This document shows, piece by piece, positions 24,001 to 30,000 of a stretch of DNA of 64,000 nucleotides. Made by a program: the position numbers. Position 1 is the first letter of the stretch. Each line of letters starts with the position of its first letter. This DNA comes from Bdellovibrionales bacterium (lineage in GTDB: Bacteria > Bdellovibrionota > Bdellovibrionia > Bdellovibrionales > UBA1609), in NCBI GenBank assembly GCA_965199825.1, contig OZ241329.1, positions 448,001 to 512,000 of the forward strand, written 5' to 3'.

Positions 24001-27000
24001 AACAAAAACCATGTCGGAGCCTTCAATGGCTTTAACAATATCGTTGTACGATTCGATTGCGGCACGTTTACCGATTTCGGGATTTGCTCCAGCGCCCAAA
24101 CCTTTTGTGAGTTCGCGACCCACCTGAATTTTGATATCGGCTTTGTTATGCTGAAGGGCTTGTCGATCGGTGTTGGCAACAATAAATTCCACACCAGTCA
24201 ATCCACCTTCGATCATGGTTTGAACAGCATTGCTGCCGCCGCCACCGATGCCGCAAACTTTTATACTCGCGCCAAAGTTGGTGTTCTCTTCCAACTCAAA
24301 CATTTAAACCCTCCTCAAGAAAACAAATCTCTAATTTTTTGGGTGAAAGTCGAAAAAAACATCCCAAGATCATCTTGAGATTTATCGTTTCGCCTTTCAT
24401 TCGTGTTGAGTTTTGCATACTGCAAAATTCCAACAGCGCAGGCACAACTTGCAGATCGAACAACATCGGTCAGCCCACCGACTCGTTGGGGAATTCCTCG
24501 GCGAACGGGCACATCAAAAACATAATCACCCATTTCAACAAGTCCCTCGAGTTGGCTTGCTCCACCTGTTAACACAATTCCTGAACCAAGGCTTGCCATG
24601 AGGCCCCGACCTTCGAGTTCTCTTCGCACCAATGTCAAAGTTTCTTCGGCGCGCGCTTCGAGCACATCACAAAGGTCGCGACGCGCCAAGGTGCGAGGAT
24701 TACGCCCGCCCACACTTTCAACTTCGATCACTTCACTCGAATCAACCAGATCTGACAATGCATGACCAAATTTTTTCTTTAAGGCTTCGGCATGAACTTG
24801 GGTGGTTTTTAAACCCATCGCAACATCATGAGTAAAGTTTGATCCACCAACCGGAATGACAGCGGTATGCATCACACTTCCGTGGAGATACGTGATCAAA
24901 TCAACAGTTCCACCACCAAGATCAACGACGCACACTCCCAGATTTTTTTCGTCATCGCTCAGCACGGCAAGTGCCGTTGCATATTGTTGTAGAACTTTAC
25001 CTTCGATTGTTAATCCAGATTTTGTGATGCACTTTTCAAGATTCTGAACCGCAGAAAGACTTGCGGTCACGATATGAACAGAAGCTTCTAGGCGCACACC
25101 CGACATTCCGATAGGATCAAGAATTCCTTCTTGGCCATCGATTTTAAAACTTTTTGGTAAAACATGAAGCACTTCGCGATCGTTTGGAATGGCGACCGCT
25201 TTTGCGGCTTCGATCACGCGTGCGATATCTTCAGAGTCTACTTCTTTATTGCGAATCGCAATCATGCCGCCCGAATCAAATGATTGAACATGTGTGCCGC
25301 CAACGCCGAGCCATACATTCGTACACTGAACGCCCGCCATCAGCTCTGCTTCTTCGCGAGCTTTTTGAATTGCTTCACTTGTTGCATCGATATTTACGAC
25401 AACGCCTTGTTTTACGCCGAGGTGGGGTGCTGTACCAAGGCCGACGACTTCGAGTGCTTTCGTGTTGTCGTTTAAAACGCCAATTGCGAAAGTCACTTTG
25501 GTGGATCCGATATCGAGTGCGGCCAAAGTCAGAGACCGTTGAGATTGTTTAGCCATCCGAGCCTCATCATCCGTGTGAAGATCACTTTTCCAAATGATTT
25601 TGGAAACTTGAGTGGTCCCTTATGAAAAAGCCTAGGGTTGCTTACGCAGCTTGACAACTACTTTCTTTGCGTAGCGAGCGTCGATGACGCGACCCTTAAT
25701 GCGCTGCCCTTGCAGATATGCGAGCACTTGCTCCACATGATTTACACTTTCCGAAAGCGTGTCTTCAGAAACTTTCACAGTCAGACCATTGCCGATCAGA
25801 ATAAATGAAAATCCAGATTTATCAAAATGAACTTCTGAAACAGAAGCCTTCGAAAAATTTCCTTTTTCGGGAAGTTGCTCAATCAACTTCACCGCTTTTT
25901 CGCGCAAACTTTGATTGGTAAAAAATTGCGGCCCTCTGAGCGTTGGCCGATCCGGAGCTTGTGTCGGATGAAACGGCGGAAGAAGTGCGCCGTCATTAGT
26001 CACCGGATGCAGATCGCCATCTTGATCCAGCAAATTAAGGTTGCTCAGCTTTGGCCGAATGACAACCGTCACGCGATTAGGAAATGTGCGTAACACTTGG
26101 GTTGTTTGAATGCGCGGATCGAGCTCGATGGTCTTTAACACATCAGGCAAATTCAAATTCCAAACCCAAATATTTTCATAAGGCTTAAGTTGAACTCTCA
26201 TTGCATCATAGATTTTGTCGAAGGCGGCTTGTTCGTCTTTTGCGGTTTCATCAAGAACAAGCTCCACCGGCTTTGCCTTTAAAAATCCTTGGCTAAAAAT
26301 ATAATAAAAGATTGTGGCTGTACCTAGTATGGCCGCAAGACCTAGAAAAAACGAAAGCGAGATTTTAAATTTCCGCATGAGTTGAACTGTAGCTTAAGGA
26401 TTGGTGGCTTGTCTAATTTTTGGCGAGCGATGGTAGGGGTTTGGTTTAGGTTGGGTGGGCCTGCGGTTGATTTTTGGCTTGGGGGGTTTTGTCGTGCCCG
26501 CTAAGTTTGGGTTTTGTGTTTAGGATTTTGTTGTGCCCGCTGGTTTGGGTTTTGTGTTTAGGATTTTGTCGTGCCCACAGAGTTTTGGAATTTTGGCTTG
26601 AGGGATTTTGTCGTGCCCGCTGGTTTGGGTTTTGTGTTTAGGATTTTGTCGTGCCCACACAGTTTTGGAATTTTGGCTTGAGGGATTTTGTCGTGCCCGC
26701 TGAGTTTGGGTTTTGTCTTGAGTATTTTGTCGTGCCCGCTAAGTTTGAAGGGAATTATTTGTCGTGCCCACAGAGTTTTGGAATTTTGGCTTGAGGGATT
26801 TTGTCGTGCCCGCTAAGTTTGAAGGGAATTATTTGTCGTGCCCGCTGAAGTTGAGGTTTTGTGTTGAGGATTTTGTCGTGCCCGCTAAGTTTGAAGAGAA
26901 TTATTTGTCGTGCCCGCTGAAGTTGAGGGGATCGACTTTGTGTTGCACGTGAGTTTTGTAGCTTGAAGGAATTTGTCGTGCCCGCCAGTCTAGAAAAATT

Positions 27001-30000
27001 TATGAACACGAAAAACTATATGCGATTTTTTATAAGTTCAAAAACTGATGTCGTGGCTGCGAGTTTTGAAATTGGCTTCAGAGATTTTGTCGTGCCCATG
27101 AGTGTGAAGGAATTGATTTTGTCGTGCCCCCTGAGGTGAGGGAACTGATCTTGTCGGGCCCGCTGTATTGTAAGGAAATTAAATTCTCGTGCCTGCGATT
27201 TTTGGAATTGTGGCTTGCAAAATTTTATCGTGCCCGCTGAGTTGGGAGAATTGATCCTATCGTGCCCGCGAGATTGGTATCCGCACTTTGAACAACTTCG
27301 TCGTGCCCGCTGAGTCTAGGTTAATTTTAAATTTCGATAACGTCGGCGCGATTTTCGAAAAATAAAATTCGTCGTGCCCACAAAAAGTTATTGACGAGTT
27401 TTTTACCTCATAACATTCGCCTCCATTCGCGTTTCGTCACATAGCGATTGTTTTTCAAAGCAACGCCTCTCCCAAGCGCTTTCAAAACAAAATCTCCAAT
27501 GAAAATCGGCACGTCTGCCGACATTAGGCACTCTCTCAAAAACCGATTTTAAAAAACCCATGATACACTCTACTTATAAACAGGAGATATTTATGGAGCA
27601 TTCAAAAATTCATTTGGCTGCGGTTGAGGCAGCCGACACTCATCGTAAATCTGAAATGGAGTTGCTCAATGCTTTGGAGCTCGTTTGGAAAAACAAAACT
27701 TTTGTGAAATATGGCTGTCGTTCATTGTTTGAATATTCAACCAAGCACCTCAAATTATCCGAAGAGATGGCGAGCATCGTAAATAAAATTGCAAAAAAAT
27801 TTACCGAAATTCCTGAACTCAAACTTCAAATGGAAACGGGCGATCTTTCGCTTTCAAAAGTGAATCGCATCACCGCAGTTGTAAACAAAGAAAATCTCAA
27901 TCACTGGGTCAATGTGGCCAAAGGAACCAAACGCAATCTCGAAAAAGAAATCGCAAAAGCTCAACCCGAAAAGGCTATACCCGAGCGGGCACGACATCAA
28001 AAAGCTGGAGATACACTACGAGTCGCAATATCTTACTCAATGACCCAAGAGGAGTTCGCACTTTTTGAACGAACCCAAGATCTCTTAAGTCAAAAATTGA
28101 AACGGCCCGCAACCCTTGGTGAAGTTCATCTTGCCGCAATTCAAGAGCTGAGCGCGAAATTGGATCCGCTCAAAAAACCTTTACGTTCAAAACAAGGCGG
28201 TACAACAAAATTGACCATCACTTTAAAACGTCAGGTTCATCACAATTATAATAGCCAATGCACTCATGTTGATGAAAATGGCGAGCGTTGTTCAGCCCGA
28301 CGCCATTTAGACATTCATCATATCATTCCGAAATCGAGAGGTGGAACGGACCTCGAAGACAATTTAACCATTTTATGTTCGGGTCATCATCGTGCCCATC
28401 ATCGAAAATAAATTTTAGCGAACACCTGCGTAATCCAAAGTTGCTCGCTGAACCAAAATATCTACGACTTGAGCAAACTCAATTCCATCTTTGGCCGCCG
28501 ACTTCGGCAGTAAAGATGTCTTGGTGCAACCTGGGAGGGTGTTGATTTCAAGAACATACAATTGGTGATCGGGTGTCACACGAAAATCTACACGCGAGTA
28601 CACGCGGCATTGAGTCACTTGATGCACCTTTAAAGAAATTTTCCTGATCTTTTCGACCACATCATCGGGCAATCGGGGCGGTAAAATGTATTCGGTTTTG
28701 CCGGCGGTGTATTTTCGTTGGTAGTCGTAAAATCCTTCTTGAGGCACGATCTCGATTGGAGTCAATACTCGATCATCCAAGATGGGCACCGTGATTTCCA
28801 TGCCTGGAATAAATTCTTCTACCAAAATTTCTTTGTCGTATTTTAGTGCGTCCACAATGCCGCGATTAAATTCATCGAGATTGTGCGCAACCGAGATGCC
28901 GACGGTGGATCCATCTCGCGAGGGTTTGATCACCACCGGAAATTTTAATTTTTTCAAAACTGGCGCGGTTTCATTTTTAAAAAATTCGAATTCAGGACTT
29001 AAAATATTGTGAAATGATAAAATTTGTTTAGTGAAATATTTGTTCATACAAAGGGCCGAGGCCATGACGCCCGAGCCCGTGTAGGGAATTTTCATATATT
29101 CACACAAGCCTTGCACCGTACCGTCTTCGGCATACTTGCCGTGAAGTGCTAAGAGTGCAACATCCGGCTTCACCCCAGCAAGGCGTAAAGGTAAATCAAG
29201 TCCAGCATCGATCACGACATACTCGTGACCAAGAGTTCGTAAGGCCTCTTCAAAAGCCCGACCCGTGTTGAGTGCAACCTCGCGCTCCGAACTCATTCCG
29301 CCCATCACAAGTGCAATTTTCATAATCCCCCCATTTTAAAAACGACCTAAAAACTGAACCTCAGGCTGCAGTTCGATACCGAATTTTTGCAGCACCACAC
29401 TTTGTATATGCTCAATCAGCAGCCTTGCATCTTTTGCTTTAGCCAAACTTTTTTTATTTACTATAAAATTGGCGTGTTTTTCAGACACTTCAACTTCACC
29501 AATTTTAAAACCTTTAAGTCCTGCTTTTTCGATCAATGAGCCGGCAGACTGACGAGGTGGATTTTTAAAAACAGAGCCACAACTCGGAAATTCGAGGGGC
29601 TGCTTTGAGAGCCTCACGCGAGTGGCCTCTTTGACTCGACCCATTACCGAAAGATCTGGCGTCATCGGCCAACTGATCTCGACTTCAGCAATCACACCCG
29701 GCTTCCAGCCTAAGGATTTTCGGTAAGACCATTGAATTTCAGACTTCTCAAATCGCCTTAGGACACATTCTGAATTTTCGATTCGTAAAACAGTCACCGC
29801 ATCAACAAGCTCGTTGAATTCGCGAGGCTCCATGAGTTCGCTGACTCCGGCATTCATCACCACGCCCCCACCTACATCGCCTGGAAGGCCACATAAAAAA
29901 AGTGCGGGTGAGAGTTTGTTTTTTAAAAAGATTTTGAGCAATTCGGATTTTGGTGTTCCGGCTAAAGTTTTAATAAATATTTTTTGGTCGCGAATTTCGT

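Follow-up and report, generated by a model that had tools for sequence, protein, structure and literature searches.

The window analysed here is a stretch of 64,000 nucleotides from a Bdellovibrionales bacterium of predatory type (GCA_965199825.1, OZ241329.1, contig positions 448,001-512,000, forward strand; coordinates below count along this window). Within it, the host genes ftsQ (25632..26378, minus strand, from the ORF call) and ddl (28415..29323, minus strand) are separated by 2036 bp; in 19 of 21 relatives tblastn places the two genes next to each other, with a gap of -23 to +125 bp. Beyond ftsQ lies a distal G/T-rich stretch lacking the motif discussed below (26379..26491, no strand), with a weak promoter-like site (9/12) pointing at ftsQ (26415-26386, minus strand); the promoter scan returned 5 matches against 3.3 +/- 2.2 in shuffled sequences, i.e. 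chance level. It is followed by a mosaic array (26492..27381) of 22 motif-led units, all on the plus strand and 18 of them exact TCGTGCCC, in which unit types of 32, 38-40 and 42 bp are interleaved. The array is polar, with near-identical units at the distal and diverged units at the proximal end (rho -0.79, for units that are not independent). One motif-bounded unit (27301..27371, plus strand) looks by eye like a diverged version of a 53-bp ACACCKCCGGAR cassette and fails the cassette pattern match; this cassette had been missed earlier.

The proximal motif of the array, TCGTGCCCAC (27372..27381, plus strand; at -221), lies at the approximate 5' end of a duplicated unit, given that alignments of close paralogue pairs begin at about -222 to -247. 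Next come a TTGAC box at -202 (27391..27395, plus strand), which a comparison of leaders places at -198 to -204 in 24/24 cases examined, and a conserved AAAAxCxTGxTAxAxT box, by eye an extended -10-like element, with an AGGAGA ribosome-binding site (27553..27587, plus strand; from the leader consensus and the sequence). A preliminary description of this DNA had proposed a TTGACG -35-like box followed by a transcribed leader of about 200 nt: the TTGAC part is indeed fixed, but the promoter scan lists no plus-strand promoter there and the transcribed leader is unsupported. The ORF itself (27593..28411, plus strand) encodes a 272-aa HTH-RHH-HNH protein, predicted to be a homodimer, and its stop codon lies 3 bp from that of ddl. 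Contigs of two sequencing runs, which may include the source of the assembly, show no differences from the focal locus except across 26563-26898, where the contigs are interrupted and one run has 2-2.7 times the depth, as is expected of a real repeat. Elsewhere in the window, upstream of mraY, there is an array of 20 units in 18- and 16-bp blocks (36396..36723, minus strand) with neither a gene nor, by a DNA HMM, any remnant of the element.

Domains and predicted structure of the protein

The predicted fold comprises three parts. The first is a helical DNA-binding domain of the ParB/KorB/Spo0J type (residues 13-128; 27629..27976, plus strand), which matches KorB (8qa8) and ParB (6s6h) at a middling Z of 6.9 (rmsd 3.2-3.7 over 95-98 residues). 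The second is a ribbon-helix-helix-like (RHH) domain (residues ~141-192; 28013..28168, plus strand), for which RHH proteins fill most of the top 50 structural matches (Z up to 5.0) and in which residues 145/146 pair with 148 across the strands of the dimer model. The third is an HNH nuclease domain with Zn ligands (28205..28408, plus strand; PF01844, E 4.9e-8), whose residues H242, H243, N257, H266 and H270 are retained in 25/26 paralogues, leaving the catalytic residues intact. The KorB/ParB-like and HNH parts recognized earlier are recovered, while the RHH domain had been overlooked; the fold matches are middling overall (Z 5-7), as had been conceded, and Foldseek found no match at E 0.001 for either model. 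The dimer prediction scored 0.72 against 0.00 for the best control, with at least 86% of contacts agreeing between runs and pLDDT of at least 79, at a mark reached by 20/30 known homodimers and 1/23 monomers. Resemblance to solved RHH dimers may lie behind this score.

HNH families are the only family matches of the focal protein. The earlier DUF222 label is left unconfirmed for it, with no match to PF02720 at E 1, although DUF222 is matched by 5/59 aligned relatives and by 14% of the members of the nearest Atlas cluster. The family is large: a cut-off of E 1e-30 returns 6,664 clusters. Among metagenome contigs, 37 loci match over the HNH segment only and were set aside.

The motif, the gene family and the copied unit

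The motif core has 522 matches in the genome, and GCGGGCACGACA, at 168 copies, is its commonest 12-mer, both as first reported. Of these matches, 232 lie at gene loci and 196 in the 10 gene-less arrays; 13 belong to small clusters and 81 are singles. As the singles are near background (~46-52 expected under Markov models of order 2-5; 75/81 in long ORFs), the motif is concentrated rather than dispersed genome-wide as had been claimed. With these numbers (81 against ~50) and 39/81 singles on the leading strand, i.e. no strand bias, we rejected its identity with Chi, an uptake sequence or HIP1. The count of about 25 paralogues of 270 aa is revised to 27 loci plus one fragment (29 ORF matches), 24 of the loci being full-length; the other three have an internal TAG, a deletion in frame and no HNH, respectively. 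All 27 carry the motif within 900 bp upstream, in gene orientation alone (146 forward, 0 reverse), with the nearest copy at -208 to -260 in 18/27, upholding the original observations of orientation and spacing; upstream spacings show no helical phasing (Rayleigh p 0.23, n=48). The arrays listed previously are present with their periods: 14 of the 15 chromosomal tandem arrays contain the motif and every cluster of at least 3 copies has a single orientation. The cassette word is found at 5 of the 10 arrays without a gene and at 8 of the 27 loci with one, and a DNA HMM found no eroded genes beside the gene-less arrays.

Each gene also keeps 2-3 motif copies, as had been noticed. In the focal ORF, these include a reverse copy spelling codons E-R-A-R (27985..27994, minus strand; synonymous fixation 0.91-0.95) and a forward copy spelling H-R-A-H (28390..28397, plus strand), in which CGT is fixed in 25/25 paralogues and GCC in 24/25. 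Among 88 columns of four-fold or higher degeneracy, the five motif codons rank 1-5, with synonymous fixation of 0.91-1.0 against a median of 0.51. The duplicated unit, about 1.05 kb long, starts at the proximal motif and closes with the motif in the last codons, soon after which paralogue similarity stops, at the stop codon; its ends carry direct motif copies and no terminal inverted repeats. The motif is specific to this genome (415 copies against 0-23 in 40 relatives). Together, the DNA-level fixation within genes, the unit boundaries, this specificity and the motifs that relatives have of their own support the assignment of the motif to the HNH gene family.

Among relatives, the linker before the HNH shares a word of at least 12 nt with the gene's own flanks in 14/59 cases, as opposed to 1/161 control windows (L003, with a broken start, was left out); the other 45 share no 12-mer. 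The subfamily words are mostly palindromic, with perfect palindromes that lack GTAG among them, and follow protein clade rather than host (protein tree by a quick method, 62 rows, G000 and G015 thinned), a concordance that is not independent evidence since kin share motifs. A motif of G040 genes occurs, among 41 genomes, in G040 (6 copies) and G013 (7 copies) only; three of the seven in G013 lie at family genes, of which the one compared belongs to the same clade. In the G036 palindromes, the central 4 bases vary with palindromy kept, and the upstream copy of locus L026 matches its own variant. The 21-copy family of G015 shows no common palindrome, and the pattern CTYYCGACGTCGRRAG does not match that genome's shorter one. 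Tandem repeats, mostly of simple units without the family motif, adjoin 25/71 relatives' genes as compared to 4/29 ddl loci, a weak, coding-rich control.

Judged by the gap in relatives, all of other genera, the element between ddl and ftsQ is an insertion; this empty-site comparison concerns the one locus. Target-site duplications are absent, as had been noted (mean shared word 4.3 against 4.5 in mismatched pairs, 24 loci), and no joint skipping the element is seen in contigs of four runs, a form in which rare variants are dropped. On the evidence of divergence, the copies are old, again in line with the first description: median dS is ~2 in the 230 unsaturated of 325 pairs (the closest at 0.14), only 2 pairs reach 95% nucleotide identity, and a median dN/dS of 0.13 indicates purifying selection. 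Phage and plasmid collections gave no match at E 1e-8 (tblastn).

A candidate repeat-spreading element and its alternatives

The HNH locus points to an undescribed repeat-spreading element, and we found no description of it in open PMC papers and bioRxiv. Our best reading, which we consider evenly poised between right and wrong, is an element resembling the REPtrons but built on an HNH enzyme. The motif itself is probably the protein's own candidate site. As every gene keeps its own sites intact, it is more plausibly a putative binding site with nicking nearby than a site of double-strand cleavage. The element would consist of the ~1.05-kb unit, i.e. the motif, the conserved promoter region and the gene with a second motif in its last codons. 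Its dimeric protein would, with good probability, bind the cognate motif via the ParB-type HTH and/or the RHH, the binding sites being palindromes in most relatives and co-oriented half-sites in this genome. Sites at both ends and within the gene may keep the protein at the locus encoding it and would probably repress the gene, with the HNH rarely nicking near bound sites. Strand-displacement repair and slippage might then duplicate motif-led units, making arrays grow distally, a step as apt to be wrong as right. With a chance slightly below even, motif-bounded pieces (an entire gene, or arrays along with the 53-bp cassette) could be copied to new intergenic sites, the motif furnishing microhomology for copying without target-site duplication.

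The REPtrons, in which RAYT/TnpA(REP) is associated with REPs, REPINs and REP arrays (PMC3116915, PMC3733652, PMC5581495, PMC8266576), likewise have a nuclease gene flanked by cognate short repeats that are group-specific per enzyme, repeats away from the gene (here the gene-less arrays) and in tandem, and few recent duplicates. However, their enzyme is an HUH/Y1 tyrosine transposase rather than HTH-RHH-HNH, they have about one gene rather than 27 and hundreds of dispersed units rather than ~10 gene-less arrays, while the motif here is non-palindromic, without a GTAG tag or hairpin doublets, and is fixed in the ORF too. The mycobacterial REP13E12/DUF222-HNH family, multicopy helical-domain-plus-HNH genes described as insertion elements (PMC13157036, PMC3381160, PMC10589994, in the portions of these sources available), shares the multiple copies, the C-terminal HNH and, in the relatives noted above, DUF222; it differs in that the focal protein has no DUF222 match, and those portions describe no cognate motif or arrays. 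Homing and nicking HNH endonucleases that are freestanding (MobA-E, SegB, phage HNHE; PMC13096335, PMC3592412) likewise have a Zn-HNH domain of the nicking type, and a homing endonuclease was shown to promote tandem amplification; as opposed to them, the genes here are dispersed chromosomal paralogues without phage or plasmid matches. The predicted folds resemble those of the ParB/KorB-parS/OB and RHH-operator systems (TraM-sbm, ParG, omega), as do the relatives' 16-22-bp palindromes their sites, but here the unit has neither a CTPase domain nor a ParA partner, and the domains are fused to a nuclease. Homing enzymes spare their own locus, where the target site is absent; unlike them, each gene here retains its intact motifs, if the motif is the target. 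The empty site at ddl-ftsQ is typical of mobile elements, whereas direct motif copies at the ends and the lack of duplication above control set the unit apart from DDE insertion sequences.

The chief rival, which we hold to be somewhat unlikely, takes the motif solely as the autorepression site of a domesticated or addictive nuclease family, such as a one-gene toxin/repressor possibly triggered by damage or phage, with arrays arising by ordinary slippage and perhaps titrating the protein, and an old spread by host recombination. The 24 intact copies of 27 under a dN/dS of 0.13 at saturating dS, RHH matches that are antitoxins and repressors, and the clustering of motifs upstream of a fixed promoter region accord with this, as do mycobacterial 13E12 genes that are LexA-bound and damage-induced in the part of the source available (PMC3381160). 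It leaves unexplained why sites are fixed in the middle of the gene and in its final codons, why the unit ends at the motif and why 10 gene-less arrays share the cassette; moreover, PADLOC matches are confined to the HNH. That the motif instead serves another factor, be it a DNA-binding protein of the host or any of the 17 Y1 transposases (PF01797, at other loci), with HNH genes inserting there or hitch-hiking, we find improbable. One gene-less array does lie inside a Y1 leader, both kinds of motif end in TGCCC, the 12-mer ACCTTCGTTCAC (one mismatch allowed) occurs near 12/38 loci against ~6 sites expected, and family genes of G036 and G015 often abut REP-like hairpins. Yet the HNH motif is absent at 16/17 Y1 genes and 14 carry a different motif (37 co-oriented, 0 reverse), and we accordingly rejected the Y1 genes as owners of the HNH motif; several HNH subfamilies whose motifs differ coexist in single genomes, the singles lack strand bias, and a gene that was only a passenger would not preserve the motif at three positions of its reading frame.

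Guide and antitoxin RNAs have precedents in OMEGA/IscB, TIGR and type III toxin-antitoxin systems. A motif acting as RNA, through arrays or leader, would fit a repeat array adjoining a nuclease gene, a leader of fixed length and an HNH that aligns best to that of IscB (Z 6.9), and OMEGA IscB/HEARO are also mobile nucleases with a conserved 5' region. We nevertheless regard it as very improbable: the 24 leaders yield no consensus structure and Rfam one match at E 0.54, far below threshold; the arrays precede the conserved promoter boxes and the in-gene motif takes both orientations, as befits DNA; and there is no RuvC, the IscB model NF040563 scoring 31.8 against a cut-off of 175 over the HNH part alone. 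Finally, mere coincidence, with in-gene copies as codon accidents and arrays as slippage or assembly artefacts, is scarcely credible. An HNH fold needing H-R-A-H and singles near background speak for it, but it is largely refuted by the synonymous fixation of exactly the motif codons, the 146:0 orientation and independent contig support.

Returning to the HNH-based element, the 'hypothetical HNH' family is very large, commonest in Bdellovibrionota and allied to DUF222/13E12, with no target or mechanism assigned in the papers found; with the domain plan predicted here, the limits of the unit and a candidate site readable from each gene, this locus makes the family testable. If the enzyme is the driver, the REP/RAYT principle would hold for a second nuclease chemistry as well, and almost every tandem repeat on the chromosome of one bacterium would have an explanation; the family might also be a source of nickases whose natural sites span 10-22 bp. 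More doubtfully, there may be a widespread class of mobile elements that rely on one enzyme, an HNH nickase guided by the DNA-binding domains it carries. Each subfamily would encode its target word in its own gene, copy itself along with motif-bounded cassettes, leave no target-site duplication and build bacterial satellite DNA. Were this so, many target words could be read from genes, and the family would amount to a large natural collection of nucleases whose sites can be predicted.

A parallel architecture, likewise missed earlier, is seen with a different motif at the Y1 transposase genes of this genome: in the window, one such Y1 (HUH) transposase-like gene of a separate family (59218..60000, plus strand) has 3 co-oriented copies of ATGACA[CTG]TGCCC upstream.

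The motif, its genes and its arrays

The focal locus lies between ftsQ and ddl, where 22 motif-led units (26492-27381, + strand throughout; 18 are exact TCGTGCCC) precede a 272-aa ORF on the same strand (27593-28411). The preliminary description had claimed that the 8-mer core of the motif TCGTGCCCRC is abundant, that its 12-mer is the commonest of the genome, and that it stands upstream of the genes in gene orientation only. These claims hold: across 2.84 Mb in five contigs we recovered 522 core matches and found GCGGGCACGACA to be the commonest 12-mer, and the core, always forward (146 forward, 0 reverse), lies no more than 900 bp upstream at every one of the 27 loci. 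The loci come from an iterated profile search, whose 29 ORFs represent 27 loci and a fragment, with 24 full-length. TCGTGCCCRC occurs 415 times here, as against 0-23 times per genome across 40 relatives. Of the core matches, 232 belong to gene loci and 196 to ten gene-less arrays (tandem motif arrays with no family gene beside them), with 81 singles and 13 in small clusters. Since the singles come close to the number expected under Markov models (about 46-52), lie mostly in coding DNA and show no strand bias, a Chi-, uptake- or HIP1-type signal is ruled out. Many single matches at contig C1 204280-238827 and 1326338-1340779 lie within the repeated parts of long paralogous genes, apparently as codon coincidences.

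The motif is present in 14 of the 15 chromosomal tandem arrays (at least 5 copies, period at least 6); the motif-free fifteenth sits just distal to the motif cluster of a Y1 (HUH transposase-like) gene. Seven arrays of contig C5 are without it; this contig, likely a duplicated or over-circularised small replicon, carries one set of 15-, 60- and 21-bp repeats twice, at 509-2894 and 12696-15081, 12,187 bp apart. In the perfect arrays the period varies from 16 to 25 bp and the spacers differ around a constant core, so these arrays have independent origins. Units of 32, 38-40 and 42 bp make up the focal array as a mosaic with breakpoints at the motif; its polarity (rho -0.79), with near-identical partners for distal units and divergence in proximal ones, fits an array that extends away from the gene. 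Contigs of two sequencing runs reproduce the locus, with breaks confined to the repeat interior. A 53-bp motif-bounded cassette word, found at five of the ten gene-less arrays and at 8 of the 27 gene loci, ties the gene-less arrays to the element. One gene-less array lies within a Y1 gene leader. The cassette (contig C1 246440, 512617, 808780, 1575874, 2565798 and others) carries a conserved ACACCKCCGGAR word and occurs in either orientation. Beside the gene-less array of the window, the translations show at least four paralogous, putative trypsin-like protease genes, their products probably secreted, in a run (window 36847-41057).

The encoded protein and the copied unit

The AlphaFold model of the focal protein (mean pLDDT 88.7, pTM 0.57) aligns, with middling Z-scores, to KorB/ParB DNA-binding domains over residues 13-128 (Z 6.9, rmsd 3.2-3.7, 95-98 residues) and to HNH domains over residues 205-272 (IscB HNH: Z 6.9, rmsd 1.6, 57 residues), while residues 126-198, folded separately, gave mostly ribbon-helix-helix (RHH) matches, likewise middling (TacA, MazE, TraM, NikR, Arc; Z up to 5.0). 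RHH proteins bind operators cooperatively. One paralogue weakly matched ParG, and Foldseek with the focal models returned no significant match. Modelled as two copies, the protein scored 0.72, where the best of three controls scored 0.00; contact agreement was at least 86% and pLDDT at least 79. The mark is reached by 20 of 30 known homodimers and by 1 of 23 monomers, and passing it may be due to resemblance to solved dimers. The predicted interface comprises the N-terminal helices and strand 141-152. Of 26 paralogues, 25 conserve the HNH catalytic residues. With 6,664 clusters at an E-value of 1e-30 or better, the family is very large; in the Atlas it is commonest in Bdellovibrionota, and 20 of the 40 relatives carry it, frequently as many copies. 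DUF222 matched 5 of 59 aligned members and not the focal protein.

Alignments of close paralogue pairs run from about -222 to -247 to the stop codon, with little beyond. The copied unit therefore spans about 1.05 kb: it starts with the proximal motif and ends shortly after the motif copy that encodes H-R-A-H. Among 88 four-fold-or-more columns, the five codons of the two shared in-gene motifs rank 1-5 for synonymous fixation (0.91-1.0 vs a median of 0.51), which shows constraint on the DNA itself. A third copy, in the pre-HNH linker, is forward in some paralogues and reverse in others; the paralogue at contig 1203213 holds both halves there, and in the focal gene this copy has decayed. At the previously described TTGACG -35-like box, every one of 24 leaders has a fixed TTGAC, at -198 to -204; the promoter scan lists no + strand site there. 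The leaders carry an extended -10-like box near -30; no conserved RNA structure was found in the 24. Distant subfamilies retain TTGAC some 200 bp upstream together with an AAAAxxCATG box close to the start (window 27391-27569; relatives' loci L002, L005, L006, L050-L061); the sequence separating the two boxes is little conserved.

In 19 of 21 relatives ftsQ follows ddl at a distance of -23 to +125 bp; here the gap is 2036 bp, which identifies the element at this site as an insertion. No target-site duplication was detected at the element loci, and no joint skipping the element among the sequencing-run contigs. The paralogues are old and under constraint, with a median dN/dS of 0.13 and a closest dS of 0.14; two pairs have at least 95% nucleotide identity. 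Recent duplicates number 4 of 26; the accessible part of PMC5581495 gives 7.7% for RAYTs and about 66% for IS200 genes. The gene's 3' end is tandemly duplicated at C1 534305-534540, with the motif, and in the relative G040 (L090, +948 to +1059), motif-free.

Proposed mechanism and its alternatives

The phenomenon is real; its mechanism is a proposal. The element works similarly to a REPtron (a RAYT/TnpA(REP) gene with cognate REPs) but has no HUH enzyme and no GTAG hairpins, and was rejected as a REPtron proper on these grounds; nor is it a DDE insertion sequence, an IscB or a classical homing enzyme. As precedents, the accessible parts of several papers describe cognate REPs as processed by, and co-evolving with, TnpA(REP) enzymes (PMC8266576, PMC3733652), tandem arrays formed by REPs (PMC3116915), short sites nicked by small HNH enzymes (PMC3592412) and tandem amplification promoted by SegB (PMC13096335). 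We favor a REPtron-like element with an HNH enzyme. That the focal protein binds its cognate motif is quite probable: a dimer would bind the word at both ends of and within the gene, probably repressing its own gene. Repair of rare nicks would then duplicate motif-led units and, more rarely still, copy motif-bounded pieces; for this whole chain, from binding through nicking to copying, we put the chances at about even.

The main rival is a domesticated nuclease for which the motif is an operator only. It is favored by the 24 old copies that are still intact and by the damage induction of mycobacterial 13E12 genes, as described in the accessible parts of PMC3381160 and PMC13157036. The Y1 family offers a parallel case. 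Fourteen of 17 Y1 genes (window 59218-60000 and 13 other C1 loci) have their own non-palindromic motif upstream, ATGACA[CTG]TGCCC, with 37 of its 42 copies there, all co-oriented (0 reverse). That two unrelated nuclease families share a layout and differ in their words argues for protein-determined sites and against a common host factor. Another 12-mer, ACCTTCGTTCAC, is dispersed over C1 of this genome in 57 copies, most of them apparently coding (one lies at window about 46177-46188); G040 has 15 and the other relatives 0-5. Its variants occur upstream of three second-type Y1 genes and near 12 of 38 HNH/array loci.

In the open literature, the range covered here (subscription papers and supplements lying outside it), we found no description of the domain plan or of the motif link; the accessible part of PMC10589994 names the DUF222/13E12 family only as repetitive, and those of PMC10853773 and PMC6006769 held nothing bearing on the element.

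Subfamily words in relatives

Relatives' loci, drawn from four multicopy genomes and single loci of others, have words specific to each subfamily, most of them palindromes of 12-26 bp, located upstream, within the pre-HNH linker or 3' of the stop. A word of at least 12 common to the linker and its own flanks occurs at 14 of 59 loci vs 1 of 161 control windows, and is absent in 45 of the 59. The G036 palindrome has CCGG, TTAA or GCGC as its central four bases, symmetric in every case, and at L026 the upstream copy is the same as the gene's own variant. Within G015, and likewise within G040, several subfamilies coexist and differ in their words; a common palindrome was sought in the 21-copy family of G015 and none found. 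On a quick tree, CCCGGG- and CTTAAG-centred words group in the focal family's clade and most ACGT-centred words in another, the G030 word being an exception. One half of TGTGCCCGGGCACA, from G010, resembles the focal motif by eye. As a forward test, CTTTCGACGTCGAAAG was taken from G040 and found, among 41 genomes, only there and in G013, where three of seven copies flank or lie inside family genes and four are isolated; the one G013 family gene compared is of the same clade as that of G040. Two further words peak in their source genomes, with 9 and 12 sites.

Tandem repeats adjoin 25 of 71 relatives' genes. It speaks against generality that these are mostly simple units lacking the motif, that 45 of 59 loci have no such linker-flank word and that the 21-copy G015 family has no palindrome in common; local repeat growth may therefore follow the gene's presence rather than the motif itself. 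By eye, among loci L051 and L052 of G015 and L002, L021, L022, L025 and L027 of G036, long inverted repeats flank a G015 gene, and REP-like CATCCATG/CATGGATG hairpin elements stand directly 3' of the stop codon in G015 and G036.
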